A stretch of 64,000 nucleotides of DNA from Patescibacteria group bacterium (GTDB taxonomy: Bacteria > Patescibacteriota > Minisyncoccia > UBA6257 > 2-01-FULL-56-20), in contig JANLHI010000013.1 in assembly GCA_024654525.1 (NCBI GenBank), positions 18,036-82,035 on the forward strand, in the 5' to 3' direction. The notes below the pieces were generated by a model, which searched no databases, was not told where the DNA came from, and worked only from the letters and a program-made list of their open reading frames with translations. This document shows positions 6,234 to 60,865 of this stretch, one piece after another (position 1 is the stretch's first letter; every line of letters starts with the position of its first letter). The translations under genes were made by a program, and so were the position numbers.

Positions 6234-6488
6234 ATGAAAATCTACTATCACCCACGGTTTGCGAAATCATATCGTAAGTTGCCGTCGCTTTTGCGCGCGA
6301 AAGCAGAAGCGCGAGAAGCGATATTCAGGAAGAATTCCTTTGACCCGCGACTTGATACGCACAAACTCCACGGCAAACTCAAGCGTCAGTGGAGTTTTTC
6401 TATTGGTTGGAAATATCGCATCCTCTTCGAGTTTGTGGATGATGGTGTTATTTTCCTTGATGTTGATGATCACGAAATTTATGCATAG
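6234..6488 (+). CDS. RelE/ParE-family toxin (YafQ/RelE-like)
   Basis: 84-aa translation with the RelE/ParE pattern HPRF.K.YRKL....AIF..N.FDPRL..HKL.G.....SF.I...YRILFEF.DDGVIFLDV.DH.IY. Confidence 0.7.
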   Translation: MKIYYHPRFAKSYRKLPSLLRAKAEAREAIFRKNSFDPRLDTHKLHGKLKRQWSFSIGWKYRILFEFVDDGVIFLDVDDHEIYA

Positions 6489-6533
6489 TGACAGGAAATG
6501 TAAGGGGACATCCGCCTTCGGCGGGACGCAGTC

Positions 6534-6635
6534 CGCTACGACCCCGAAACCACGCGTTTCTGCAGCTATGCATGGGGTGGTGAAATAGTAGGATGGATTA
6601 AATTCGGACCATTGCCGACAAGTCAGAGTCCCAAA
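6534..6635 (+). pseudogene. degenerate paralogous fragment of the Gly-rich protein C-terminal repeat
   Basis: Encodes RYDPETTRFCSYAWGGEIVGWIKFGPLPTSQSPK followed by a stop. No start codon and stops upstream in frame. About 85% DNA identity to 3917-4041. Confidence 0.6.
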
Positions 6636-6805
6636 TAAGAGGAGGGATGCGACCGAACGCCTTCCAAATAAAGTTCCGTCGCCTCCTTAATGTTTTCAGC
6701 AAGCTTATCAAATGTTTTCGCTTGCGTAACAATGGGGACATCGACCCCCTGCGCGATGTAGTGAATATCTCCTTTTGAGATGGAAAATTGAAGAATGTGT
6801 TTCAT
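6623..6805 (-). CDS. HicB-like (UPF0150) antitoxin-domain protein, probably C-terminally truncated or replaced
   Basis: HicB N-domain pattern (KGD.HYIAQGVDVPIVTQAKTFD.L.ENIKEATELYLEG). The last 13 codons are encoded by the reverse strand of the duplicated fragment. No hicA partner is present. Confidence 0.45.
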   Translation of the reverse strand: MKHILQFSISKGDIHYIAQGVDVPIVTQAKTFDKLAENIKEATELYLEGVRSHPSSYLGL

Positions 6806-8314: not shown

Positions 8315-8905
8315 ATGAAAAAAGAAAAAAACAATATTGCATTTCTTGTGGTAGCGGTGGTCGCGCTTTTTGCGGGGTGGAATACATCGTCTCTTTTTGC
8401 ATGGGATAAGCCGACATTGCCACCAACAAGCGGAAATACTTCCGCACCTATTCACGAGGGATCGTTGGTGCAAGCCAAGTCGGGGAAGTTGATTGTAGGA
8501 GGTCTTGGAATTCATTCGTGGCAATTTATTCCTTCGAGCGATTGCCTTTCTCTTGGTGGTGCGCAAGCGTGGTCGCGAACGGGTGTATCTGTCGGATCGG
8601 GAACATGCCCCGCGGCGGGTACCGCATTTTCCGTTGAAGGAGGCCTCCTTATTGAAGGAGGAGATATGGGGGATGTACTTACCAACGTCGGCGATGGCGT
8701 GGTGCAGTGGAAAAAGTTTGTTGCACCGATTGTGAAAATCATCGCAGGTTCGAACACGCGCATCACTCCCGAAGCGGGTACCGGGGATGTGACAATAAAT
8801 GCCATTATGCCCTCAATGCCTTCGGTTCCAAGCTGGGTTACTAATCGTTCGGGGGGGGTTCCTCATGCAGACGCACAAGGGAATGTATCATGGGGATCAT
8901 TATAA
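8315..8905 (+). CDS. secreted protein, short paralog of the next gene
   Basis: N-terminal hydrophobic anchor. Shares the GDVLTN.GDGV..W.K.VAP and PS.P.VP.WV.....GV...D..GNVSW blocks with 8929-9888. Confidence 0.55.
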   Translation: MKKEKNNIAFLVVAVVALFAGWNTSSLFAWDKPTLPPTSGNTSAPIHEGSLVQAKSGKLIVGGLGIHSWQFIPSSDCLSLGGAQAWSRTGVSVGSGTCPAAGTAFSVEGGLLIEGGDMGDVLTNVGDGVVQWKKFVAPIVKIIAGSNTRITPEAGTGDVTINAIMPSMPSVPSWVTNRSGGVPHADAQGNVSWGSL

Positions 8906-8928
8906 AAAATGATATACTATAACTATTC

Positions 8929-9888
8929 ATGAGTATTAAAAAAATATCCTCATTTGTTGCCGTGGGAATCGTGGCGTTTATGATAGGTTCCGGTGCGCGA
9001 TATCTTTCGGCGCAAACGTTTAATGCGCCCACGCAAACTCCTCCTTCGGAAAATGTTCCCGCGCCGATTAATGTGGGGAGTATTACGCAAACAAAAATAG
9101 GAGGGCTCAATCTCGAAGGCAATTTTGCTATTAAAGCGGGGTCAAGCGAGGAATGGGCTTTTGATGTGCAAAGAGGAAGTTTACGGCTTGGGTCTGCGCA
9201 AGCGTGGGGTCCCGACGGTACGGTGATGATTGGCAGTGTGCCGGAAAATTGGAGCAATCCGAGCGGTGTTGTGTTGAATATCAATGGAGGAGTTCGTATT
9301 CAAGGAGGAAACAGCGGTGATGTGCTTACCAACAAAGGAGGTGGCGTGGCAAGTTGGGAAAAGCCGGTGGCGCCTGTAACCAGTATTCTTGCAGGATCAT
9401 ATATCACAGTGACTCCTTCAGCGGGAGGAGTGGTGACGGTGAGTGCGATTCAACCCTCGGCGCCCGATGTTCCCGGATGGGTAAATCCCGGTTCGGGAAG
9501 TTCTAATCGTGTGCCGGTAGCGGATTCAAACGGAAATGTGTCGTGGCGCGTAGTACGCGCAGTGGTAAGCGGCGGAGGAAGTTCTTCTATAGATGTAAAT
9601 TCCGCATATGAATCAATCCGACAGCCCAGTGATCCCCTTCTTCATGAAAATGGAATAGACCGAGCAGTGTATCACGATTCTTCGACACTCAACCGAATAT
9701 GTGTGCAGAAAGGATATGAGCGTTATGTGGGCGGAGGAACTTTCAAAATATGGACAAGCCCGGAAGATAACGGAGTAGTGGCGTGGGGCGGTTCTCAATG
9801 GGTAAAATATGATGGGGATAATAAGGAACATGTAGAAGGAGCTATCACGTGTGAAACAACAGGAAGCGCGCGTCTTATTCTGGAGTAG
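8929..9888 (+). CDS. secreted protein, long paralog (possible fibre/adhesin-like)
   Basis: Paralogous to 8315-8905 with an extra ~120-aa C-terminal domain. Signal anchor present. Confidence 0.6.
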   Translation: MSIKKISSFVAVGIVAFMIGSGARYLSAQTFNAPTQTPPSENVPAPINVGSITQTKIGGLNLEGNFAIKAGSSEEWAFDVQRGSLRLGSAQAWGPDGTVMIGSVPENWSNPSGVVLNINGGVRIQGGNSGDVLTNKGGGVASWEKPVAPVTSILAGSYITVTPSAGGVVTVSAIQPSAPDVPGWVNPGSGSSNRVPVADSNGNVSWRVVRAVVSGGGSSSIDVNSAYESIRQPSDPLLHENGIDRAVYHDSSTLNRICVQKGYERYVGGGTFKIWTSPEDNGVVAWGGSQWVKYDGDNKEHVEGAITCETTGSARLILE

Positions 9889-9917
9889 ATAGTTTTTCTG
9901 AATATCGTAGGTATATC

Positions 9918-9948
9918 AAAAAAAACACCGGATCCCGGTGTTTTTTTG
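9918..9948. terminator. bidirectional rho-independent terminator
   Basis: ACACCGG-atc-CCGGTGT hairpin flanked by an A-run and TTTTTTT. Confidence 0.6.
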
Positions 9949-9961
9949 ATGAGTATAAATT

Positions 9962-10624
9962 TTACTGAGCGGTACTAGTAGTAATAACGATTGCCGGAGT
10001 GTAGAGCACTTGGCGGGTTACATTTGCAGTGCTTCCTAAGAAGCGTGTCCCCGTCACTTCGATAGTATTGAGTCCTTCGTGGAGCATGACGCGTTTTTCC
10101 CAATCACCTTGGTCATTCACAGGCACGGATTCGCCATTTACGGTTGCTTTCTCTCCGTACGAGAGAGAACCGCGAACCGTAATTTCCTCCGTCTCGGCGG
10201 GAGTAATGCCGCGCGGAGGATATTCCACGATGAGAAGCGGTGTACCGAAGATTGCGACAAAACGTACGCCAAGATAAATAAGTAACACCACTCCCACTCC
10301 GGCAATCCACATGGGAGCTGACGATTTTTCCTTAAACCTGTTTATGGGGAGGGCATCTGAAGATCCGGACGCCCTTACCACTCCTTCCGCTTTTAATTCG
10401 CGCCACCATGCTTCTCCGTCGAAATCAAGTACGGTACCGAGTTTATGAAGATACCCATGCACATATGGGGAAGGTGGGAGCGCCTCAAAATTCCCCGCAA
10501 TAAGGTGCTCAAGGTGGGCAATTGAAATGTTCGACATTTGAGAAAGCTTCTCAACAGTCCAGTTTTTATCGCGGACTCGTTCATGGAGAAAAGTTCCAAA
10601 TTGCTGAGGGGAAGTTTCGGTCAT
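9962..10624 (-). CDS. HTH-domain membrane protein (RodZ-like architecture)
   Basis: N-terminal XRE-type HTH (TVEKLSQMSNISIAHLEHL), one TM helix, then an extracytoplasmic domain. Confidence 0.5.
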   Translation of the reverse strand: MTETSPQQFGTFLHERVRDKNWTVEKLSQMSNISIAHLEHLIAGNFEALPPSPYVHGYLHKLGTVLDFDGEAWWRELKAEGVVRASGSSDALPINRFKEKSSAPMWIAGVGVVLLIYLGVRFVAIFGTPLLIVEYPPRGITPAETEEITVRGSLSYGEKATVNGESVPVNDQGDWEKRVMLHEGLNTIEVTGTRFLGSTANVTRQVLYTPAIVITTSTAQ

Positions 10625-14782: not shown

Positions 14783-15339
14783 GAATGATAATGCTCGCAC
14801 GGAATGTGCGGGCATTTTTATTGACGCTTGCTCTTTCGTTGGAGTATAGTGGGGATGCAATGCAAGATTTTTTCAACAGTTCTCTTGGTATGAATCTTTC
14901 CGTGCCACAGGTGGTGCGGGAGGTTATTCGTTTTATGAAAGAGGATGAGACACGGGCATATAAAGTAATTATCGGTACCGATTCGGAGAGACTTCCCGAA
15001 AACAAAGCGGACTTTGTTACGGCGATCGTGGTACACCGAATAGGAAATGGAGGAAGATATTTTTGGAAACGAGTTGAGCATGCTTCAATTCACACGCTTC
15101 GAAATCGTATTATTAAGGAAGCGCTTATGTCACTTGATATCGCAAAAGAGGTATTGATGGAGCTTAAGGCTGCATCTGCTCCGGAATTCGGTTTTGAAAT
15201 TCATGTGGATGTCGGTGAACATGGCCCGACGAAAGTGATGATTCAAGAGGTAGTGGGAATGGTTCGTGCGCACAACTTTGAGGCGAAAACAAAACCTGAA
15301 AGTTATGCGGCATCGAATGTGGCGGATAGGCACGTGTAG
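14779..15339 (+). CDS. YkuK-family RNase H-like protein (DUF458)
   Basis: YKVIIGTDSE...FVTAIVVHRIGNGGRYFWKRV and a C-terminal KPESYAASNVADRH. Assignment is from memory of the YkuK family. Confidence 0.65.
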   Translation: MRMIMLARNVRAFLLTLALSLEYSGDAMQDFFNSSLGMNLSVPQVVREVIRFMKEDETRAYKVIIGTDSERLPENKADFVTAIVVHRIGNGGRYFWKRVEHASIHTLRNRIIKEALMSLDIAKEVLMELKAASAPEFGFEIHVDVGEHGPTKVMIQEVVGMVRAHNFEAKTKPESYAASNVADRHV

Positions 15340-15429
15340 GAGTAATCGCGAATAATGCGAATCGCAGGCAAATAACACAAATGGATTTGCATTATTAAAA
15401 TCAAAATTCGCATTATTCGTGATTACTCC
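15339..15429. repeat. 24-bp near-perfect inverted repeat (large hairpin) in the intergenic region
   Basis: GGAGTAATCGCGAATAATGCGAAT (15339-15362) pairs with ATTCGCATTATTCGTGATTACTCC (15406-15429), one mismatch, ~43-nt loop. Confidence 0.7.
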
Positions 15430-15430
15430 T

Positions 15431-16015
15431 ATGGATACTTTAGTGTTCGACATAGAAACGCAAAACTTCTTTACCGATCCCGGCGTGGGGTGGGATAATT
15501 TTGAGGCGCTTAAAATTTCTGTAGTGGGGATATATTCCTATAACCAAGATAACTATATATGTCTTGAGGAGTCCGAAATGCGCGCAGTAGCCGACCTTTT
15601 TGAAGGTGCGAATCGCATCGTGGGATTCAGCATCAATAGATATGACGTTCCGGTACTCCAAGCATATTTCAATCGTTTTAAAGAAGGGGGAAAACCGGAT
15701 CTTTGGAAAAAAGACCGTGTCGACTTGCTTAAAGAAATTGAAATGGCAACAGGATCACGAATAAGCTTAAACAAAGTAGCGGAAGCGAATCTTGGAGGAG
15801 GGAAGGATAAAAAAGGATCCGAGGCTCCCGAGCTTTACCGTGCAGGGAAAATTGACGAACTCAAAGAATATTGTTTGAAGGATGTGAGACTTACGAAGGA
15901 TCTTTATGATTTGTATCGGCGGCAGGGGTTTCTTATGGTGCCGGAACGAGGGACGGGAAAATTGCGTAAGGTTACTTTTCCCGAACTTCAGGTTCCTACG
16001 GTGCGACTTTTCTAG
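15431..16015 (+). CDS. RNase H-fold 3'-5' exonuclease-like protein (YprB/PolB-exo-like)
   Basis: N-terminal LVFDIET motif and exonuclease-like spacing of acidic residues. An internal ATG start was chosen. Confidence 0.6.
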   Translation: MDTLVFDIETQNFFTDPGVGWDNFEALKISVVGIYSYNQDNYICLEESEMRAVADLFEGANRIVGFSINRYDVPVLQAYFNRFKEGGKPDLWKKDRVDLLKEIEMATGSRISLNKVAEANLGGGKDKKGSEAPELYRAGKIDELKEYCLKDVRLTKDLYDLYRRQGFLMVPERGTGKLRKVTFPELQVPTVRLF

Positions 16016-16036: not shown

Positions 16037-17368
16037 ATGCGGAATGGACGCATGAGAAAGATATATTTGGATTATGCGGCGACAACCCCGATTGCCCCGG
16101 AGGTTTTGCGTGCGATGACTCCTTATTTTTCGAATATGTTCGGTAATTCGGGTTCGTTGCATGGATTCGGACAAGAAGCGGTTTCCGCAATCGATAATGC
16201 GCGAGAGGTGGTTGCTCGAATTATCAGTACGGATTTCGAAGGGGTGGTGTATACCAGTTCCGCAACAGAGGCGAATAATCTTGTATTACGAGGAGTGGTG
16301 AAAGCGTTGCGAACCACGAATCATGAATCACACGAAATTCGCAATTCAAAATTCGTTATTCGTCCTCGTATTATCATTTCCTCTTTAGAGCATGAATCGA
16401 TACAAAAAACCGCGTACGATCTTGAGAGGGAAGGATGCGAAGTTATAGAAATTCCGGTAAATTGCGAAGGAGTGATTGATATAACAAAGTTGAAACAGGC
16501 GTTGAATGAGCGAACGATACTGGTTTCGGTAATGTATGCAAACAATGAGATAGGCACGGTGCAACCAATTGCTGAAATTGCAGAGGTCATCCGCAGTTTC
16601 AGAGAAGAAAGGAATAAAAATCATGAAAAAAGAAAAAATTTTCTATTCTCTACTCCTTATTCCTTATTCCCGTTATTCCACACCGATGCGGTACAAGCAT
16701 TCCAATTTTTAGAGTGCGATATGAAGAAACTTGAAGTTGATATGATAACGCTTTCCGCTCATAAAATATATGGACCGAAGGGAGTGGGAGTACTGTGTAT
16801 ACGCAAAAAACCACACGAAGTAGGAATAAGGAATCAGGAATCAGGCATAACTTCCAATTCTCCATTTCTTATTCCAGTAATGACCGGGGGTGGGCAGGAG
16901 TTCGGATTGCGGTCAGGTACGGAAAATGTTTCCGGTATTGTGGGATTTGCCGAAGCAGTACGACGCGTAACAACAATGCGTATGCGCGAAACGCGGAGAA
17001 TTGCAAAACTTCGAGAGAAATTGTGGTGCGATATTAAGAAGATTTGTCCGAAGGTGAAAATAAATGGAATAGATGAATTCAAAATTCAAAATTCCAAATT
17101 CCGGACGTTGCCTAATATTCTGAATGTTTATTTCCCGGGGATGTACGCCGAGGAGATGTTGGTAAGATTCGGCACAATGGGAGTGGCGGTGTCTGCGGGA
17201 CCTGCGTGCAGTAGCAGGGCAACAGAGCCATCACGAATAATTCGGGCACTTGGGTATTCGGCGACGCGCGCACGGCAAAGCATCAGATTCAGTTTTGGCG
17301 CTTATACCACCGAAGATGAGATTGTTCGCGCGGGAAACGCTGTAAGAAAAATAGTGCGACAAATGTAA
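16037..17368 (+). CDS. cysteine desulfurase (class V aminotransferase, NifS/IscS-like) with low-complexity inserts
   Basis: IYLDYAATTP start, PLP-lysine SAHKIYGPKGVG and the catalytic-Cys region GPACSS. Four short inserts are encoded by heptamer repeat tracts. Confidence 0.9.
   Translation: MRNGRMRKIYLDYAATTPIAPEVLRAMTPYFSNMFGNSGSLHGFGQEAVSAIDNAREVVARIISTDFEGVVYTSSATEANNLVLRGVVKALRTTNHESHEIRNSKFVIRPRIIISSLEHESIQKTAYDLEREGCEVIEIPVNCEGVIDITKLKQALNERTILVSVMYANNEIGTVQPIAEIAEVIRSFREERNKNHEKRKNFLFSTPYSLFPLFHTDAVQAFQFLECDMKKLEVDMITLSAHKIYGPKGVGVLCIRKKPHEVGIRNQESGITSNSPFLIPVMTGGGQEFGLRSGTENVSGIVGFAEAVRRVTTMRMRETRRIAKLREKLWCDIKKICPKVKINGIDEFKIQNSKFRTLPNILNVYFPGMYAEEMLVRFGTMGVAVSAGPACSSRATEPSRIIRALGYSATRARQSIRFSFGAYTTEDEIVRAGNAVRKIVRQM
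16334..16361 (+). repeat. heptanucleotide tandem tract (NNNATTC x4) inside the coding sequence
   Basis: gaaattc gcaattc aaaattc gttattc. Similar tracts at 16641-16678, 16821-16858 (reverse orientation GGAATNA) and 17073-17105. Confidence 0.6.
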
Positions 17369-24097: not shown

Positions 24098-27000
24098 ATG
24101 AGTACATTCGGTAAGAAATTTGTTTCAATTGCGCTCATGGCGACCGTCACTGTATGGGCGTCAGGAGCACTTCTTTTCGTGCCGGCAGCGAATGCACAAT
24201 CATCGTCTGATCTTCAGGCGCAGATTGCGCAACTTCTGGCGCAGATTCAGCAACTCCAAGCGCAGCTTAATACTGCACAAGGAGGGACAGCTATGATGTC
24301 TTCATCTCTTGATATTACTCGCGACCTCACCGTGGGAAGTACGGGGGACGATGTCAAAAAACTTCAGCAATGGTTGAACGCAAACGGCGCAAAGATTGCT
24401 GACAGTGGTGCGGGTTCTCCGGGGAACGAAACTACGTTTTTCGGTCCTTTGACGCAAACTTCACTTGGAAAGTGGCAGGCGGCGCACAATGTGTCGCCAC
24501 CAGCGGGATACTTCGGGCCTGTGACACGTGCGAAGATTTCTTCGCTCGCGTCCGCAACCCCGTCGACACCGCCGTCAACTCCGAACACCCCGTCGACACC
24601 GCCGTCAACTCCGTCAGTTCCAGCTCCATCAGCCGGTTTGGCGGTAGGCATTTCTTCGCAGAATCCGGCAGCGGGTTCTCTTATCTCGTCTTCGGGGAGT
24701 GCGGCGGCACGGGTTCCCGTGCTTGCAGTAAGCCTTACGGCGGGAACGGCGAGTGGTATGACAGTGAACGCGCTTAAGTTTCACAAAACAGGCGTGCTTT
24801 CCGACAGTTCAATTTCAGGCGCATACGTTGAAGAAAGTGGCAAGGTTCTCTCACAATACACGTCGATTTCAAACGGCGTGGTTTCGTTCCCGGGGCTTTC
24901 GTTAAACATTGCCGCGGGACAGACAAGACACCTTACTCTTTCGATTGACCCTGCGCAGGCATTGTATGCGGGAAATACGGTTGGATTTGCTATGACTAGC
25001 ACTTCTGACGTATCGGCGACAGATGCCACAGGTGCGGCGGTTACCCCTTCGGGCAGCTTCCCTCTTAACGGCAACACGTTCACGGTTACTTCTGTATCAA
25101 ACCCATCAATCGCATCGTTGACGGTTGCATCGTCCTCGATCGGTACGACGGTATATGCAGGAACCAAGAATGTAATCGTCGGTGCATGGAGCTTGACGGG
25201 TTCAAACAGCAAAATCTGGCTTAAAGGTATCAACTTTAAAGTAATCGGTTCTGCCAATAAGTCGGATATACAGAACATCAAGCTTTATGTGAATGGCACG
25301 CAAACAGGACAGACCATTCCGGTTCTTTCTGCTGACGGCCAAGCATATTTTGATCTTTCGGCGGCTCCCGGAACCATCAACACGGGCTCGAACAATGTTC
25401 AGGTCTATGCTGATGTCATGGGTTCTCCGAACTTCAATTTCCAGTTCGAAATCTTGAACGCGTATGACATTCTCGCGGTTGACTCACAATACAATGTGCC
25501 GGTTACTGCGGGGTCGAATACGGGAACACAGGTTTCGATCAACGCAGGAAGCGTAACGGTGACTGCGGCGTCTGATACGCCGACAGGAAACATTGCAACG
25601 GGACAAACAAGTGTCACGCTTGCAAAATACACCGTATACGCGGCGGGTGAACCGGTAAAAGTAAAGTGGCTTACGTTCCAGCTTGCATTTACATCCGCGA
25701 CAAGCACGCTTGATAACATGATCAAGAATGTGCACTTGGATGACGATGCGGGTGGGCAGGTAGGAACGACAATCTCGTCGCTTCAAACCACCGCCACTTG
25801 TACGGGTACCGCGTTCTCCTCGGCAACTACGACGGCAACCAACTGTTTCGGATCTTCGGGTTCTCCGATTAACTACATCATTCCGGCAAACACCACACGG
25901 GTGCTTTCCTTGAAGGGTGACGTGCAATCGGTAACCGCGGCATTCTCGACAGTAAAAGCGACTCTCACCGCAGGTTCGTCGAACTTGCAGGGGTTGATTT
26001 CTTCGGCGACTGCTTCAAGCGGTTCAGCATCGGGTAGTGCATTGACGCTCGCGTCAAGCGCGCTTACGGTGGCGAAGAATTCTGCCGTAGGTTCGGTAAC
26101 TGTTGCAAAAGGCGCCGGCAATCAGAAGGTTGGATCGTACGCGTTCTCGGCTTCATCGGCTGAAGGCGTGACGGTTTCAAACCTTACGGTTGCATTGGGT
26201 GCCGCTGGCGCGCTGTTCCAGAACTTGAAAGTAAAAATTGGCGACAGCCAGTTCGGAAACACGACGCAAACGCTTGCAAACAGCGGATCATACTCGTTCT
26301 CCGGGACACCGTTTACGGTGCCTGCAGGAAACACGACGTATGTTGACGTGTATGCAGACGTACTCTCGTCAGCATCGGCGGGAACCAAAACCGCGATCAC
26401 CACGCTTAGTGGTTGTTCAGGTTCTGGATTGTCTTCGTATACCGCGGTAAGCTGTACCTCAACAGCCGGTCAAGATGTGGTGGTTGCGGGCCAGTCCACG
26501 GTGGATGTATCGCTTGACTCATCGCTTACTCCGGCAGCCGGACAAATAGTGATGGGATCGAACGGCATCACACTCGCCGCATTCCGTCTTACGGAAACAA
26601 CGAACATCGAAGACATAAAGATTACGGACTTGAATGTCTTTCAACAGGTAGCCGCAACGTCCACTACAAAGTCGGCGTTCGGAAACTTGAAGCTTTACAC
26701 GTCTGACGATCTTGTGAATGCGATCGCAACAGCGGGTTCAGCAAACGAAGCGGCATCAAGTTCGAATCCTGGTTTCGGGTACTACTATGCGTTCCACTTC
26801 ACAAGTCCGGTCGTAGTGCCGCAGTCTAATGCGGTCTCGCTTGTCTTGAAGGGTGATGTGTCGTCCTACAACTCCTCGGGAGCAACAGACAACACGACTC
26901 ACGTCTTCAAGATCGCGACTTCGACCGATACGGCAAACGACACGCTTGCCGAAACGATAGTGGCGCTTGGATCCACTTCGAACAACACGTCTTCAATCTC

Positions 27001-27565
27001 GTTTACCACGCCGAATGCCAACGCTTTAACAGTATTGCGCACGAAGCTTACGGTAACGGGTACGAATGCGGCAACAACTGCACGCACGCAAACTGCAGTT
27101 GACGATATCGGTACGATTAACTTCGCCGCCGATTCAGCGGGAGCATTGCAACTTAGTTCGGTCACTATCACGTTTGCGGGGTCAGCTCCGTCAACGACGA
27201 ACTTCTACAATGCAACCTCGACAGCAACGGGAGCGTGTGCCACTTGTTACGTGACACTTTACGACACGAACAATGGGACAACATATAACCCGATTGCATC
27301 GTCAACGACAAGCTTGTCCTTTGATCTTGGCAATTACAGTCTGACTGCCAATACGTCAAAGAGCTTTACGCTCCGCCTCAACACTGCGCAATCCGGCGTA
27401 TTGGTTGCAGCCGGATCGGCAAGCACGGCGCACAGCTTGTCTGCAACGATTTCTGCTGCGGGTAACGTGACATGGGTTGACGCGTTGTCGGGAGGCTCTA
27501 CAGGACTTTCACTTCCTGCGGCAGCCGTACCGGTTACAATCAGTTCTGTCTCGTACACCTACTAG
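24098..27565 (+). CDS. giant cell-surface protein with a peptidoglycan-binding domain and Ser/Thr/Ala-rich beta-rich region
   Basis: Signal peptide, Q/A-rich coiled segment, PG_binding_1-like block (GDDVKKLQQWLNANG...FGPLTQTSLGKWQ), PSTP linker, then ~900 aa of low-complexity S/T/A/G/V-rich sequence. Confidence 0.85.
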   Translation: MSTFGKKFVSIALMATVTVWASGALLFVPAANAQSSSDLQAQIAQLLAQIQQLQAQLNTAQGGTAMMSSSLDITRDLTVGSTGDDVKKLQQWLNANGAKIADSGAGSPGNETTFFGPLTQTSLGKWQAAHNVSPPAGYFGPVTRAKISSLASATPSTPPSTPNTPSTPPSTPSVPAPSAGLAVGISSQNPAAGSLISSSGSAAARVPVLAVSLTAGTASGMTVNALKFHKTGVLSDSSISGAYVEESGKVLSQYTSISNGVVSFPGLSLNIAAGQTRHLTLSIDPAQALYAGNTVGFAMTSTSDVSATDATGAAVTPSGSFPLNGNTFTVTSVSNPSIASLTVASSSIGTTVYAGTKNVIVGAWSLTGSNSKIWLKGINFKVIGSANKSDIQNIKLYVNGTQTGQTIPVLSADGQAYFDLSAAPGTINTGSNNVQVYADVMGSPNFNFQFEILNAYDILAVDSQYNVPVTAGSNTGTQVSINAGSVTVTAASDTPTGNIATGQTSVTLAKYTVYAAGEPVKVKWLTFQLAFTSATSTLDNMIKNVHLDDDAGGQVGTTISSLQTTATCTGTAFSSATTTATNCFGSSGSPINYIIPANTTRVLSLKGDVQSVTAAFSTVKATLTAGSSNLQGLISSATASSGSASGSALTLASSALTVAKNSAVGSVTVAKGAGNQKVGSYAFSASSAEGVTVSNLTVALGAAGALFQNLKVKIGDSQFGNTTQTLANSGSYSFSGTPFTVPAGNTTYVDVYADVLSSASAGTKTAITTLSGCSGSGLSSYTAVSCTSTAGQDVVVAGQSTVDVSLDSSLTPAAGQIVMGSNGITLAAFRLTETTNIEDIKITDLNVFQQVAATSTTKSAFGNLKLYTSDDLVNAIATAGSANEAASSSNPGFGYYYAFHFTSPVVVPQSNAVSLVLKGDVSSYNSSGATDNTTHVFKIATSTDTANDTLAETIVALGSTSNNTSSISFTTPNANALTVLRTKLTVTGTNAATTARTQTAVDDIGTINFAADSAGALQLSSVTITFAGSAPSTTNFYNATSTATGACATCYVTLYDTNNGTTYNPIASSTTSLSFDLGNYSLTANTSKSFTLRLNTAQSGVLVAAGSASTAHSLSATISAAGNVTWVDALSGGSTGLSLPAAAVPVTISSVSYTY

Positions 27566-36166: not shown

Positions 36167-36385
36167 ATGCATAATCCTCGGAGAATAATTTGGGTTGTGA
36201 TTGCGTTTGTGATTGCGGTGGTTGCATGGATGTGGTGGCAGAATGCCGCTATAAATAAGGGAAGTGAAAACGGAGAAACGTGGCAACCTCCATCTTTACA
36301 ATCGAATGGCGAGCCTTTTCGGGGTCCCGTGGGAGATCCTTTTATAGTGGGGCCTACAGAACCGCCTCCCGGGACCAGCCGTTGA
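36167..36385 (+). CDS. small membrane protein (hypothetical)
   Basis: 72-aa ORF with one TM helix and a Pro/Gly-rich tail. Confidence 0.3.
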   Translation: MHNPRRIIWVVIAFVIAVVAWMWWQNAAINKGSENGETWQPPSLQSNGEPFRGPVGDPFIVGPTEPPPGTSR

Positions 36386-36522
36386 GAATTTGGAATGAAG
36401 AATGTAGAATGGGGAGGCTAAAACTCACCGTCGCGGGTTACGCGGGCTTGTCCGAAGAAGTAGCGCGCCATGGTGAGTAAAAGCTTTCCTTCGCTAAAAT
36501 TACGGAGGGCAATGCGGGCGTC

Positions 36523-44918: not shown

Positions 44919-45779
44919 ATGGTGTCGATTATCCTTTTTGTTTTAGGACTGTCTTTCGGAAGTTTTATAAATGTGATTGCGCTTCGTTATAATCCGGATC
45001 GATTTTTGTTTTCGCGCACCGCGCTTGGCGGACGTTCTCGATGTGCTCATTGTAAAAAAACGCTTCGATGGTTCGAACTTGTACCGCTCATAAGTTTCTT
45101 GTTCCAGCGGGGACGGTGCCGTTCATGTCACACGCGACTTTCCCCACAATATATGTTCGCTGAAATCATTGCGGGCGCCATATTTGTACTCGTTCCCATT
45201 CGTATTGCATCGTTATACCTCCTACCTCCTACCTCCTACTATCTTCTTGTTACTGTTTGGATTTTTGTGTTGCTGATTCTGCTTCTCCTCTCTCTTATCG
45301 ATGTCCGTTTTCGTATTATTCCCGATGAGTGCAACGTGGCGCTTATCGGAGCGGGAATGGCAATCGCAATTCTTACACCGGTAATGAATGGAACGGGCGG
45401 TTCGTTTCTTGGAGCGTATGGAATTTTACTTCTCGCGCAATCGCACATATGGGTTAATAAACTTTTAGGGTTTCTTGCGGGGGCGTTCGGGCTTGGGATA
45501 CTTGCGGTGGCAACTCGAGGGAAAGGAATGGGCATGGGGGATATAAAACTTGCGGCGGCGCTTGGTGTGGTTTTCGGATGGCCTGATATTGCGGTATTGC
45601 TTGGTATCGCGTTCGTCCTTGGGGCGATTGCCGGAATACTTGAGATAGCGACTGCAAAAAATACGCTTAATGGGACTCTTCCTTTCGGACCGTTTATTGC
45701 GCTTGGCGCTACAATGCTTTTCTTTGGCGGATCGGAGCTTGTGAAGTGGTACTTCGGTGTATTTGCGGGATGGTGGTGA
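44919..45779 (+). CDS. pilD: prepilin peptidase PilD (A24 family)
   Basis: N-terminal C..C...C..C zinc site. Conserved Asp-containing TM regions. Contains an LPPTSYYLL insert encoded by a CCTACCT heptamer tract. Confidence 0.85.
   Translation: MVSIILFVLGLSFGSFINVIALRYNPDRFLFSRTALGGRSRCAHCKKTLRWFELVPLISFLFQRGRCRSCHTRLSPQYMFAEIIAGAIFVLVPIRIASLYLLPPTSYYLLVTVWIFVLLILLLLSLIDVRFRIIPDECNVALIGAGMAIAILTPVMNGTGGSFLGAYGILLLAQSHIWVNKLLGFLAGAFGLGILAVATRGKGMGMGDIKLAAALGVVFGWPDIAVLLGIAFVLGAIAGILEIATAKNTLNGTLPFGPFIALGATMLFFGGSELVKWYFGVFAGWW
45217..45243 (+). repeat. CCTACCT heptamer tandem tract inside pilD
   Basis: tatacct cctacct cctacct cctacta. The related tract GGTAGGT x3 lies at 59838-59862 inside murD in the same coding orientation. 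Confidence 0.6.
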
Positions 45780-56957: not shown

Positions 56958-58412
56958 CTATCGTGATTCTTCGTAAAGTCTTCCAAGTCCCAAAATATCG
57001 GGTTCATGGAAGGGTTTTCCGATGAGTTGGAATCCCACGGGGAGCGTTGAAAATTCTTTATCAACAGGAAGAGAAAGCCCGGGGAGCCCTGCGAGATTCA
57101 GAGAGAGAGTAAAAATATCTTCAAGATACATTGCAAGCGGGTCATTTACCTTTTCCCCTATTTTAAACGGAAGCGTGGGAGTGAGGGGAGTAAGAAGTAC
57201 GTCTACCGACTCAAACGCTTTTTCGAAATCTTGTTTGATAAGTGTGCGTACGCGTTGTGCTTTGTCGTAATATGCATCGTAATAACCGGATGACAAGACG
57301 AATGTACCGAGAATGATGCGGCGTTTCGGTTCCGCGCCAAATCCTTCACCCCGTTGCATGAGATACAGTTCCTGAAGCTGTTTGCCCTCTATTTCCTGCT
57401 TCCTGATTCTTGAATATCGTATTCCATCAAACCGCGCAAGATTTGACGAGGATTCCGCGGGAACAATGATGTAATAGCACGGTACCGCATATTTTGTATG
57501 CGGAAGTGAAACTTCTTGCACAGAAAGACCAAGAGACTTCATTTTTGAAATCGCCTTCTCTATATTTGAGTGTACTGTGGGATCGAGTCCATCGATAAAA
57601 TATTCTTTCGGAAGTCCGATGCGAAGTTTTCTGATACGGGAGAAATCGGGATTCAAAAGTTGTTCGCGGTATGTATCGGAATTTTCCGGATCGGCACTTG
57701 TCGCGTCGAGTGGATCTTTTCCGCGAATCACATCGAATACAATCGCTGCATCTTCTACAGTTTTTGTAATGGGACCGATTTGATCCAAACTTGATGTCAT
57801 CGCAATAAGCCCCGAACGGGAAACTGCGCCATAGGTCGGTTTGAGTCCCACCATACCGCAGAACGCAGAAGGTTGGCGCACAGATCCGCCGGTGTCCGAA
57901 CCCAATGCCGCGATAGCCATATCGGAAGCCACTGCGGCAGCGGAACCGCCGGAAGAACCTCCCGGAACGCGCGTGGGGTCATGAGGGTTTGTGGTTATTT
58001 TAAACGCCGAATTTTCGGTAGAAGATCCCATCGCAAATTCATCAAGATTTGTTTTACCGAGCAATACTGTTTTCTGTTCTTTTAGTTTAGCAATTACAGT
58101 TGCATCATAACTTGAGGTGTAATGTTCCAGTATTTTTGATGCGGCGGTAGTAATTTCGTTTTTTACCAGCATATTATCTTTGACCGCGAAGGGAATTCCC
58201 GCGAGCATGGGAACCTTTTCATTTTTCGCAATTGAGATGTCCACCTGTTCCGCTTCGCGGAGTGCGGTTTCTTCACGTGTACTCAAATAGGCGTTTATCA
58301 CGCCGTCTTTTTCTCGGATGCGAGCATAATAACCCTCCGCAATTTCAAGCGCCGTGAATTCTTTATTTATAAGGCCGTCGTGAAAGTTTTTAATGGTAAG
58401 ATTTTTTGCCAT
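56958..58412 (-). CDS. gatA: Asp/Glu-tRNA amidotransferase subunit A
   Basis: Amidase signature GGSSGGSAAAVA and overall GatA length and layout. Confidence 0.92.
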   Translation of the reverse strand: MAKNLTIKNFHDGLINKEFTALEIAEGYYARIREKDGVINAYLSTREETALREAEQVDISIAKNEKVPMLAGIPFAVKDNMLVKNEITTAASKILEHYTSSYDATVIAKLKEQKTVLLGKTNLDEFAMGSSTENSAFKITTNPHDPTRVPGGSSGGSAAAVASDMAIAALGSDTGGSVRQPSAFCGMVGLKPTYGAVSRSGLIAMTSSLDQIGPITKTVEDAAIVFDVIRGKDPLDATSADPENSDTYREQLLNPDFSRIRKLRIGLPKEYFIDGLDPTVHSNIEKAISKMKSLGLSVQEVSLPHTKYAVPCYYIIVPAESSSNLARFDGIRYSRIRKQEIEGKQLQELYLMQRGEGFGAEPKRRIILGTFVLSSGYYDAYYDKAQRVRTLIKQDFEKAFESVDVLLTPLTPTLPFKIGEKVNDPLAMYLEDIFTLSLNLAGLPGLSLPVDKEFSTLPVGFQLIGKPFHEPDILGLGRLYEESR

Positions 58413-58784: not shown

Positions 58785-60173
58785 TTATCGGAGTTTGCGC
58801 ACCAATTCTTTGAATTGTTCTCCGCGGTCGGCGTAGTCCTTAAACATATCGAAGCTTGTGGCGCCGGGAGAGAAAAGGATAGTGGTAAATTTTGAATTTG
58901 TTTGCGTATCGGCAGGGTAGGGAGTTTTAAGTTTGGAATAACGATATGCAATGTGCACCGCATTTTTTAGACTACTTGCTACTTGCAGTTCGCAATTCGT
59001 CCCCTGAAGCGCATGTTTAATCTTGTGTGTATTTTCTCCCATAAGCACTACGAGTTTCACCGGATGTTTTTTTAGTGCGTTTGCAAGCGGAGCGTAGTCA
59101 AGATTTTTATCTTGCCCTCCGACAATTACCACCACGGGAATTTTGAGTTTTATACGCAAGTTGGCGGGTTGAATTTGGAATGACTGTATTGCGGCAGCGG
59201 TCGTATGGGGATTGGTTGATGAAGAATCGTTATAAAAACGAACACCGTGAAGCGTACGGACAAGTTCAAGGCGGTGTTCATTGCCCCGAAATGACATCAC
59301 GGTGCGTGTAATAACTGCACGCGAAATTTTAAGCGATCGAGCAATCGTTGCCGCCATTACGGCATTTTTAAAATTATGCATGCCCACGAGTTTTAGATCA
59401 CCAAGAGAGAATATATCGAATTGTGTTTCGTCCACCGCTATTTTTTTCCCCGGACTTTGATATGCAATGCGCCGACTTATAGGATTTTTTGCGAAGAAAA
59501 ATATCGAGTCAGCTTTTTTTTGATGAAACGCAATGTTTTCTTTCGCACGGTAGTATTCCGTCACGCTTGTGTGTGCATCTTGGTGGTCGGGGAACATATC
59601 GAGTACGGCGGCAATATGAGGAGATTGGTTGAGATCTTGAAGCTGAAAGCTGGAAAGTTCCAATATTATACAACTGGTAGCGGGTAGTGAGTAGTGAGTA
59701 GATAAAAGATCGAGGGCGGGTTTGCCGATATTTCCGGCGAGATACACTTTCTTTCCCGCCGCTTTGAGTATTTTGTAGAGGAGCGTGCAGGTAGTACCTT
59801 TTCCTTTCGTGCCGGTGACGCCGATAATGCATGGTGATTGATAGGTGGTAGGTGGTAGGTTTTGGAGGAAGCGTGAGTTCAATTCTTCAAAAAATAATTT
59901 GGTTGCACTCGAAATTTCCACACCATGTTTTTTTGCGGCTTGGATTTCTGGAAGGAGATATGGAATTCCCGGAGAGCGGAATATTATGTTGAATTCCTTG
60001 AGGTGTTCGAGATATTGAGATCCCAAATATGCATGTATGCCGCGGGGAAGCGCGAGTTTTTTCCGTTTATCAAGCATCCATACTTCAGCGTTTTTAAATT
60101 TGGGTGATTGTTTGAAAAAGCGAAGTAGTGACTGTCCCTCGCGCCCAAACCCCAAGATGGCGATTTTTAGCAT
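58785..60173 (-). CDS. murD: UDP-N-acetylmuramoylalanine--D-glutamate ligase
   Basis: Mur ligase P-loop GVTGTKGKGTT, MurD-like N-terminal Rossmann segment and C-terminal domain. Contains an LPPTTY insert from a heptamer tract. Confidence 0.88.
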   Translation of the reverse strand: MLKIAILGFGREGQSLLRFFKQSPKFKNAEVWMLDKRKKLALPRGIHAYLGSQYLEHLKEFNIIFRSPGIPYLLPEIQAAKKHGVEISSATKLFFEELNSRFLQNLPPTTYQSPCIIGVTGTKGKGTTCTLLYKILKAAGKKVYLAGNIGKPALDLLSTHYSLPATSCIILELSSFQLQDLNQSPHIAAVLDMFPDHQDAHTSVTEYYRAKENIAFHQKKADSIFFFAKNPISRRIAYQSPGKKIAVDETQFDIFSLGDLKLVGMHNFKNAVMAATIARSLKISRAVITRTVMSFRGNEHRLELVRTLHGVRFYNDSSSTNPHTTAAAIQSFQIQPANLRIKLKIPVVVIVGGQDKNLDYAPLANALKKHPVKLVVLMGENTHKIKHALQGTNCELQVASSLKNAVHIAYRYSKLKTPYPADTQTNSKFTTILFSPGATSFDMFKDYADRGEQFKELVRKLR

Positions 60174-60543: not shown

Positions 60544-60618
60544 GCCGATGTAGCTCAGTGGCAGAGCAGACGTTTCATAAGCGTCAGGTCGCAGGTTCGA
60601 TCCCTGCCGTCGGCACCA
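60544..60618 (+). tRNA. tRNA with CAT anticodon (elongator Met or Ile2/lysidine), CCA encoded
   Basis: Acceptor GCCGATG/CGTCGGC, anticodon loop TTCATAA, T loop TTCGATC, 3' ACCA present. Confidence 0.8.
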
Positions 60619-60658
60619 AAATACAAACCCGCCAAATGATTGGCGGGTTTGTATTTTG
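60619..60658 (+). terminator. strong rho-independent terminator
   Basis: ATACAAACCCGCCAA-atga-TTGGCGGGTTTGTAT followed by TTTTGG. Confidence 0.7.
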
Positions 60659-60865
60659 GTGCCACTGCGGACTCGGTTTTGCGAAAACTATTTTTGGGAT
60701 GAAAAGGATTTTCGCACAATCTCGACTGAATTTTTGTCCGTCCGCAGGAGGGGCTTTGGCCGTAAGCTCATCCGAACGGGTGTGGCTGCCTCGTCGAGAC
60801 GACGAGTCGAGGCCTGGCCAAGGGCGGCAGCGAGGCGAACGAGGAATGCGGGCAGAAAATATATT

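Follow-up and report, generated by a model that had tools for sequence, protein, structure and literature searches.

The tandem heptamers read in frame through a cysteine desulfurase gene of a Patescibacteria genome raise the question of how such inserts came to lie in a core enzyme. The gene is carried by contig JANLHI010000013.1 (positions 18,036 to 82,035) of a metagenome-assembled genome of the candidate phyla radiation (CPR), and the whole stretch of 64,000 nt analyzed here (46% G+C) is referred to as the window. CPR bacteria have tiny genomes, thought to be strongly streamlined, and the variable low-complexity inserts of their core enzymes confuse alignment, annotation and structure prediction. 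We propose that the desulfurase tracts are decayed in-frame copies of palindromic repeat elements resembling the Rickettsia palindromic elements (RPEs), modified by slippage in 7-nt steps, a reading to which we assign a probability of about 0.62.

Period-7 inserts in the cysteine desulfurase

The desulfurase open reading frame (ORF) matched IscS/NifS chains of the PDB with E-values down to 1e-68 and was 100% identical to the NCBI entry "cysteine desulfurase [Patescibacteria group bacterium]" from a 121-kb contig, while protein-cluster look-ups found no close variants of this particular protein. Repeat tracts were counted with a lag test (at least three copies, at most two mismatches, no simpler period) against 30 dinucleotide shuffles. 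Eight period-7 tracts were obtained in the window for 0.27 expected (shuffle maximum 2), compared with five period-6 tracts for 1.9 expected and none at periods 8 to 15. The period-7 tracts described in an earlier note on this DNA were thus in excess over chance, and such head-to-tail 7-nt units place the tracts in the class of heptameric simple sequence repeats. All eight were genic, falling in the desulfurase (four to five), pilD, gatA and murD (two); for a given gene of 1.3 kb, a binomial estimate of the clustering of four or five was ~1e-5, and <1e-3 after correction for ~50 genes. Tandem Repeats Finder reported period-7 arrays at 16333-16355, 16654-16670, 16822-16850 and 17076-17101 in the desulfurase, and elsewhere at 45216-45239 (pilD), 59684-59701 and 59842-59860 (murD). 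The window was rich in words of the GGAATNA/TNATTCC family (20 found, 8.5 +/- 2.7 expected), and an Rfam scan of it returned tRNAs only.

The earlier note had placed four desulfurase tracts at 16334-16361, 16641-16678, 16828-16841 and 17073-17105, encoding EIRNSKFVIRP, STPYSLFPLFH, GIRNQESGITS and EFKIQNSKFRT, and both the sequences and the translations were correct. Extra residues relative to the PDB IscS/NifS chains occurred at exactly these four positions (insert sites 1 to 4, Table 1), as they did relative to the shortest CPR homologues. In a model computed with AlphaFold from 28 sequences, the predicted local distance difference test (pLDDT) fell below 50 at all four sites (residues 102-105, 201-205, 260-274 and 352-355). 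The tracts are therefore in-frame insertions, as had been suggested, in variable, low-confidence loops; desulfurase orthologues from outside the CPR lacked both the inserts and the quoted peptide segments.

Forward and reverse heptamer runs paired into hairpins at sites 1 to 3. Site 1 (GAAATTC/GCAATTC/AAAATTC/GTTATTC) had arms at 16310-16328 and 16344-16362 that were 79% complementary (fold -13.9 kcal/mol, z -1.7). Site 2 combined fully complementary outer arms (AAGGAATAA, 16609-16617; TTATTCCTT, 16657-16665) with inner arms (16625-16636/16639-16650) and tandem TCCTTAT x2.4 (fold z -1.8). The strongest fold was at site 3 (-17.3 kcal/mol, z -3.98, reached by 0 of 200 shuffles), where the arms GGAATAA GGAATCA GGAAT (16823-16841) and ATTCTCC ATTTCTT ATTCC (16857-16875) were 79% complementary. 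Site 4, an array of GAATTCA AAATTCA AAATTCC AAATTCC (3.7 copies, 94% in Tandem Repeats Finder), was mostly one arm with a weak stem (fold z -0.8). The GGAATCA repeat at site 3, formerly taken for a mere reversed repeat, is thus one arm of a hairpin, and of the former idea of a selfish or slippage-driven repeat class tolerated in frame, the frame held but the plain tandem repeat did not.

The same loops in relatives and a dispersed palindromic family

Among 27 CPR homologues (48-58% identical, 386-513 aa), length differed almost only at the four sites; the shortest lacked the inserts, and in the others certain words recurred (IIHNSSFII, RIKNNELR, RNQESG/KSQESGVRSQESGV, FGFRDSDF, NPKQIQN, STNNESETNKRI). 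A 7-residue peptide period is what is expected from a heptamer array read through all three frames. The DNA of 12 related Paceibacteria-type desulfurase genes was compared (labels such as L081 denote related or other loci); their loci showed synteny with that of the window for the RNase H-like, desulfurase, HtrA and ClpB genes, and the same four loops were filled with 7-periodic, often strongly hairpin-forming DNA. In the pooled inserts (n=45, 3.1 kb, 13 genomes) the base-match was 0.438 at lag 7, 0.384 at lag 14 and ~0.27 at other lags, compared with 0.249 at lag 7 in 15.8 kb of core sequence, and the mean fold z was -1.85 against -0.60 for core controls. Inserts of single relatives folded with -15 to -43 kcal/mol, in blocks of ~5 bp with small internal loops every 7 nt.

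Period-7 tracts numbered 10, 3 and 5 in L081, L082 and L083, with at most one tract for each of the periods 8 to 10. In these three loci, 10 of the 11 other period-7 tracts were intergenic, several of them large hairpins (z down to -7.3), and most non-CPR control loci had no period-7 tract. Spread of the inserts to neighbouring syntenic genes was rejected: lineage-specific inserts were small and few (15), with no signal at lag 7, in FtsK, ClpB, HtrA, NTP-transferase, two unnamed proteins and the RNase H-like protein of the window and six syntenic relatives, together with RecA from four of the relatives. As a separate observation, genes for a reverse transcriptase (RVT_1) and bAvd-like accessory proteins (6312-6677, 8603-8938, 8952-10004) stood directly upstream of the desulfurase of L085 (Ryanbacteria), overlapping its start, in what looks like a diversity-generating retroelement.

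A discrete element, Family A (a 70-nt palindrome, ATCAA-(CGAAT)x4...(ATTCG)x4-CTGAT), had copies in L082, L084 and L088/L089, and in relatives it occupied sites 1, 2 and 4 of the desulfurase as well as nearby intergenic DNA. Similarity between copies ended abruptly at ATCAACG...CGCTGAT. Copies also lay at, or adjoining, the intergenic position that in the window holds the palindrome 15337-15431 (L082 9375-9444, L084 6973-7058, L083 9892-9969). A metagenome scan requiring both termini returned at least 125 copies on at least 120 contigs, mostly intergenic; among the matches listed, lengths peaked at 70 nt (10 x 7), with another peak at 85-86 nt. The left arm reads ATCAA-[CGAAT]-AA-[CGAAT]-N6-[CGAAT]-N3-[CGAAT]-loop and the right arm loop-[ATTCG]-N3-[ATTCG]-N6-[ATTCG]-N2-[ATTCG]-CTGAT, with a loop of 0-14 nt and extra core units now and then.

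At least 17 copies (14% among the matches listed) were inside long ORFs, in both orientations; the recognizable hosts among these matches were MnmA, at one and the same site on five contigs, TsaD and the desulfurase (two each), RNase HII, UvrD and a PMT_2 glycosyltransferase. Two sense frames were seen (STNNES... and QRITNQ...), and the third holds a stop (ATC AAC GAA TAA). The glycosyltransferase, a membrane protein of L130, harbored two in-frame elements, a Family A copy (SSTNNESATNIRI...) at 1823-1907 and a CGAAATC-type hairpin (HEAPNPKQISNSNDQNPKQFRVLNLKNLNLFRNSDLGF).

In a set of 129 distinct copies of Family A, pairing held in 98.7% of the pair cells with zero compensatory changes, and the CGAAT cores were invariant while the spacers drifted freely (the terminal cores were fixed by the search pattern, the inner ones were not). 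The pairs are thus conserved as sequence rather than as structure, and selection on RNA structure was rejected on this ground. A role as DNA-uptake signal was rejected as well, with 180 CGAAT words observed in the window for 180 expected; observed/expected ratios were 0.8-1.35 in ten other loci. Target-site duplications were not seen for Family A (flank identity 3/30 over 1 or 2 nt, 1/30 over 3 nt, 0/30 over 4-5 nt), and the flanks carried no information.

The window was searched without filters (128 kb of strand) with a Family A covariance model and with a second, larger model from 150 sequences. The best match was the palindrome 15337-15431 (E 0.003 with the first model, 0.001 with the second), whose 26-nt arms, TAGGAGTAATCGCGAATAATGCGAAT and ATTCGCATTATTCGTGATTACTCCTA, are 96% complementary around a 43-nt loop and fold with -44.1 kcal/mol (z -7.06). 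The first-model ranking continued with site 1 (0.017; 0.004 with the second model), site 2 (0.07; 0.58), a terminator-like stem at 60612 and site 3 (0.14; 0.16); site 4 reached 0.44 and gave no match at E<=2 with the second model. All four insert sites were within the first nine first-model matches, for which a rough chance estimate is ~1e-6. Judged from its sequence, site 1 appears to be a short Family-A-like palindromic element. The exact termini ATCAACG/CGCTGAT do not occur in the window, and sites 2 to 4 are built of GGAATNA/TNATTCC units, a word family also found in frame in an MnmA gene elsewhere.

Turnover at the insert sites was visible between close relatives. Among near-identical Jorgensenbacteria proteins, site 2 differed by the loss of 16 residues between direct repeats, and site 1 carried LRRQDAK in perfect duplicate; an indel of 10 residues at site 4 separated two 96%-identical proteins. 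Over 2.4 kb, L088 and L089 were distinguished by four substitutions and one 30-nt GC-rich palindrome, present in L088 (1596-1625), absent in L089 and situated at the very apex of the hairpin of site 4. This palindrome of ~30 nt, CCGCCA(A/G)AGGCGGATCCGCCT(C/T)TGGCGG, is a second class of mini-element, absent from the window, with copies at L082 7360-7392, L016 20782-20805, L083 6102-6124 and L015 10810-10833; genes from several CPR lineages carry it in varied frames and orientations (peptides SAKGGSASGGK, QRRIRLGRK, PPKADPPLAE).

Sites 1 and 2 of L088/L089 (750-830, 1035-1148) displayed inverted heptamer arrays of the GGGTTTA/GGGTTAG type, encoding GLGFRVEGL...LTPNPYTL. These arrays are an element family of their own, and their likeness to the plant-type telomere repeat is probably coincidental. 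Their P-Y-T-rich LTPNPYTL loop peptides loosely resemble LPPTSYY and LPPTTY, the peptides of CCTACCW tracts in the pilD and murD genes of the window.

Origin of the desulfurase inserts

In the mechanism that we propose, hairpin elements whose arms consist of ~7-nt units sharing a conserved GAAT/ATTC core, elements that are common between the genes of Paceibacteria-type CPR genomes, would multiply in this intergenic DNA, where units could be gained and lost freely. Now and then a copy would land in, or be copied into, coding DNA, and its survival there would need a loop-tolerant protein, a stop-free frame and a length that is a multiple of three. A surviving copy would be translated as a low-complexity peptide of ~7-residue periodicity and would afterwards be altered by slippage (gain or loss of units), substitutions and deletions. 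Such decay would leave old copies, as in the window, short, partly one-armed and known mainly by their period-7 tracts. The elements would then be mobile, sites 2 to 4 of the window would descend from them rather than having originated in place, and the inserts would be functionally neutral.

Several observations weigh against this proposal. Useful E-values with the Family A models were obtained for site 1 and 15337-15431 only, those for sites 2 to 4 being weak, and these three sites could have arisen in place. No transposase or other mobilizing enzyme was found, no gene of the REP-associated tyrosine transposase (RAYT) type was linked to the elements (an association that was not tested), and no pair of filled and empty sites was found for Family A itself, the sole polymorphic insertion being the GC-rich palindrome. 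Neutral insertion leaves the concentration in one gene, the desulfurase, unexplained. That the CGAAT cores stay invariant, with spacers left free and without compensatory changes, hints at some function, and the window tracts contain exact adjacent duplicates (GGAATCA x2, AAATTCC x2, TCCTTAT x2), such as local slippage produces.

These duplicates indicate that some local slippage also occurred, and a pure form of that process would have unit-7 simple repeats growing in tolerant loops and inverted by template switching within quasi-palindromes, without any mobile element. It would accommodate the pilD, murD and gatA tracts, which have no hairpin partner, and a heptamer unit that varies among sites and genomes; an excess of heptameric repeats is reported for many bacteria, period 7 has been linked to a polymerase footprint as an idea, and Xanthomonas has convergent inverted arrays (PMC4692102). 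We nevertheless consider it rather unlikely. Each 7-nt step shifts the frame, so growth unit by unit is hard in an essential gene, which favours the arrival of pre-formed arrays, although steps of 21 nt or changes that compensate one another may occur. Across sites, genes and genomes, the copies of Family A have in common their non-periodic termini, abrupt ends and architecture; neighbouring genes with variable loops showed no lag-7 signal; and since the loops of relatives hold dispersed elements that are also found intergenically, slippage alone is insufficient.

A function at the nucleic-acid level, with hairpins or CGAAT/GAAT arrays acting in termination, mRNA stability, translation pausing or protein binding, would be in keeping with the core invariance just described, with the strong intergenic hairpins, some bearing a terminator-like apex, and with the repeated targeting of the desulfurase gene. 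It is made improbable by the lack of covariation, by the shortest homologues, which do without inserts, by the hypervariable sequence and length of the inserts and the degraded state of the window copies, by the absence of genome-wide CGAAT enrichment and by the absence of a U-tract 3' of the genic hairpins in the desulfurase. That the inserts were selected as surface loops giving the CPR enzyme new interactions seems very improbable: the same four loops are occupied in most homologues, and only two sense frames of Family A, besides antisense, are in use, which yields recurrent peptides, but the two-frame limit simply reflects the stop in the third frame, the same DNA is read in differing frames and orientations in different hosts, and the peptides are of low complexity and low pLDDT, absent in some homologues and polymorphic between near-identical contigs. 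Phase-variation switches or assembler errors are scarcely credible; the TACCTCC x3.4 tract is perfect and sits in a pilus-biogenesis gene, yet such tracts comprise three to four units only and lie mid-gene in housekeeping enzymes, and the same features recur in many independent assemblies from different projects.

Beyond the RPE-like descent of the desulfurase tracts, we tentatively put forward that Paceibacteria-type CPR bacteria carry a new superfamily of modular palindromic elements, with invariant CGAAT/GAAT cores at ~7-nt spacing, free spacers, sharp ATCA...TGAT ends and no target duplication, which may be spread by a sequence-specific enzyme and may repeatedly colonize housekeeping genes in frame, chiefly those for enzymes of sulfur relay and tRNA modification (IscS/NifS, MnmA, TsaD). 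The invariant-core, variable-spacer design points to a putative recognition protein. If true, this would add another RPE-like system, independent of the first, and would account for much of the low-complexity insert content of CPR proteins. A hairpin-repeat origin would give such inserts a concrete source, a route to masking them and a strain-level marker, and bears on the origin of new loops and peptide segments.

Other features of the window and known repeat systems

Table 1. Repeat features of the window and the desulfurase that hosts the four inserts.
Feature	Position	Strand	Repeat or peptide	Basis or remark
Cysteine desulfurase, IscS/NifS type, 443 aa	16037-17368	+		ORF; PDB matches; NCBI protein identity
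Insert site 1	16310-16363	+	TNHESHEIRNSKFVIR	Imperfect hairpin; indel vs PDB; covariance-model match
Insert site 2	16607-16679	+	RNKNHEKRKNFLFSTPYSLFP	~20 extra residues vs PDB
Insert site 3	16821-16877	+	VGIRNQESGITSNSPFLIP	12-14 extra residues vs PDB
Insert site 4	17066-17104	+	DEFKIQNSKF	~8 extra residues vs PDB
Intergenic palindromic element, one gene upstream of desulfurase	15337-15431	.		Hairpin; model match
Non-coding heptamers upstream of tRNA-Gly	36386-36411	+	Four GAATNNN	GGAATNA-family matches
Tract in pilD (prepilin peptidase, 44919-45779)	45213-45241	+	TACCTCC x3.4 (100%); LYLLPPTSYY	
Weak tract in gatA (56958-58412)	57393-57413	-	AAGAATC AGGAAGC AGGAAAT; RIRKQEIEG	3-residue indel
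Second tract in murD (58785-60173)	59676-59704	-	ACTCACT ACTCACT ACCCGCT; LSTHYSLPATS	
Tract in murD	59838-59863	-	CCTACCA CCTACCA CCTATCA; NLPPTTYQ	

The CCTACCW tracts had been described in the earlier note as a second family of inserts, one in pilD and one in murD. In murD this was borne out, the tract at 59838-59863 coinciding with an insertion of ~7-8 residues before the P-loop in alignments with PDB MurD, and a second murD tract (59676-59704) was added to the count, at an indel of 3-5 residues. The pilD tract lies between Pfam A24_N_bact and Peptidase_A24, in a variable loop between membrane segments; since this loop was of usual length in 19 homologues, a net insertion was rejected. Neither the pilD tract (fold z +0.3) nor the murD tracts (minimum free energy 0 at 59838-59863) formed a hairpin, and the simplest reading of the tracts in pilD, murD and gatA is that of ordinary slippage repeats of heptamers at variable loops.

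The GAATNNN heptamers directly follow a TGA at 36384-36386 (Tandem Repeats Finder period 7 at 36393-36411). The listed GTG start (15419) of the RNase H-like ORF is inside the right arm of the 15337-15431 palindrome, and ATG at 15431 is the more likely start. Apart from this palindrome, the other long inverted repeats of the window were rejected as heptamer elements, being ordinary terminator-like stems. One of them, at 60612-60663, with 24 perfect base pairs in its stem and 4 nt in its loop (z -9.25), overlaps the end of the second tRNA-Met gene (60544-60618) and looks like a terminator; it scored with the hairpin model because it is a strong palindrome. An ORF of 1155 aa (24098-27565) contains in-frame tandem repeats of period 21 (24212-24265, 2.6 copies) and period 30 (24557-24613, 1.9 copies, 100% identical), both unrelated to the heptamer class.

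A period-7 excess and convergent heptamer arrays are already known from other bacteria, where they are intergenic and G-rich, as in the G-quadruplex-forming GGGNATC repeats of Xanthomonas and Nostoc and the short tandemly repeated repetitive (STRR) heptamers of cyanobacteria (PMC4692102). The CPR repeats share with them the unit of 7, its excess over other long periods, convergent stem-loop pairs and length variation among relatives, and differ in their AT-rich GAAT/ATTC units, their in-frame position in enzymes and, in relatives, elements with fixed termini. Arrays were also seen outside the CPR, as a 149-nt GATGTTY array on a groundwater Bacteroidia contig (L057 1531-1679) and as inverted heptamer-array pairs on Terriglobia and Vicinamibacterales contigs (L062 12974-13047/15838-15890, L064 3613-3725), so that the array-hairpin style is not limited to Patescibacteria. 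Small dispersed repeats nested in other repeats were reportedly described in cyanobacteria by Elhai and colleagues in 2008; the GC-rich palindrome at the apex of a heptamer hairpin may be comparable to them, the sequences being unrelated and the organisms different.

The CPR elements resemble repetitive extragenic palindromes (REP), bacterial interspersed mosaic elements (BIME) and transposable elements of the miniature inverted-repeat type (MITE) in being small, non-coding, hairpin-forming, high-copy and mostly extragenic, with terminal inverted symmetry and no internal transposase. Assignment to MITEs was rejected for want of a target-site duplication in Family A. REPs are characterized by a palindrome of 20-40 nt headed by GTAG or CGTC and by a RAYT transposase (PMC3733652), and assignment to REP/BIME was rejected, Family A measuring 70-87 nt with ATCAACG...CGCTGAT termini and no GTAG/CGTC head.

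The likeness drawn in the earlier note, to the in-frame palindromic elements of Rickettsia, was apt. RPEs are small palindromic repeats of several families, found in intergenic DNA and in frame in unrelated housekeeping genes, where they are translated into additional peptide stretches that the fold accepts (PMC10969869). The CPR elements are likewise of several families and dispersed, intergenic as well as in frame in housekeeping genes, with extra peptides compatible with the fold (PDB indels, pLDDT <50). Hairpin-forming palindromes were present at sites 1 to 3 and 15337-15431 of the window and in relatives; dispersed genic and intergenic copies were found in relatives and metagenomes, the window itself holding one intergenic and degraded genic copies. 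The differences lie in length (70-87 nt vs ~150 nt for RPEs), in modular arms with a pentamer core repeated at ~7-11-nt spacing, and in the genic share (~14% of CPR copies among the matches listed vs nearly half in some RPE families). Membership in the Rickettsia RPE families proper was rejected on taxonomy (Patescibacteria, not Alphaproteobacteria), on the different architecture and on an Rfam result of tRNAs only, the RPE consensus not being compared directly. The literature searched, which covered few subscription journals, yielded no account of palindromic or heptamer elements lying in frame in CPR genes. The CPR elements match RPEs in behaviour, without kinship of sequence or taxonomy, and would provide a second natural example, besides that of Rickettsia, in which proteins have absorbed selfish palindromic DNA.

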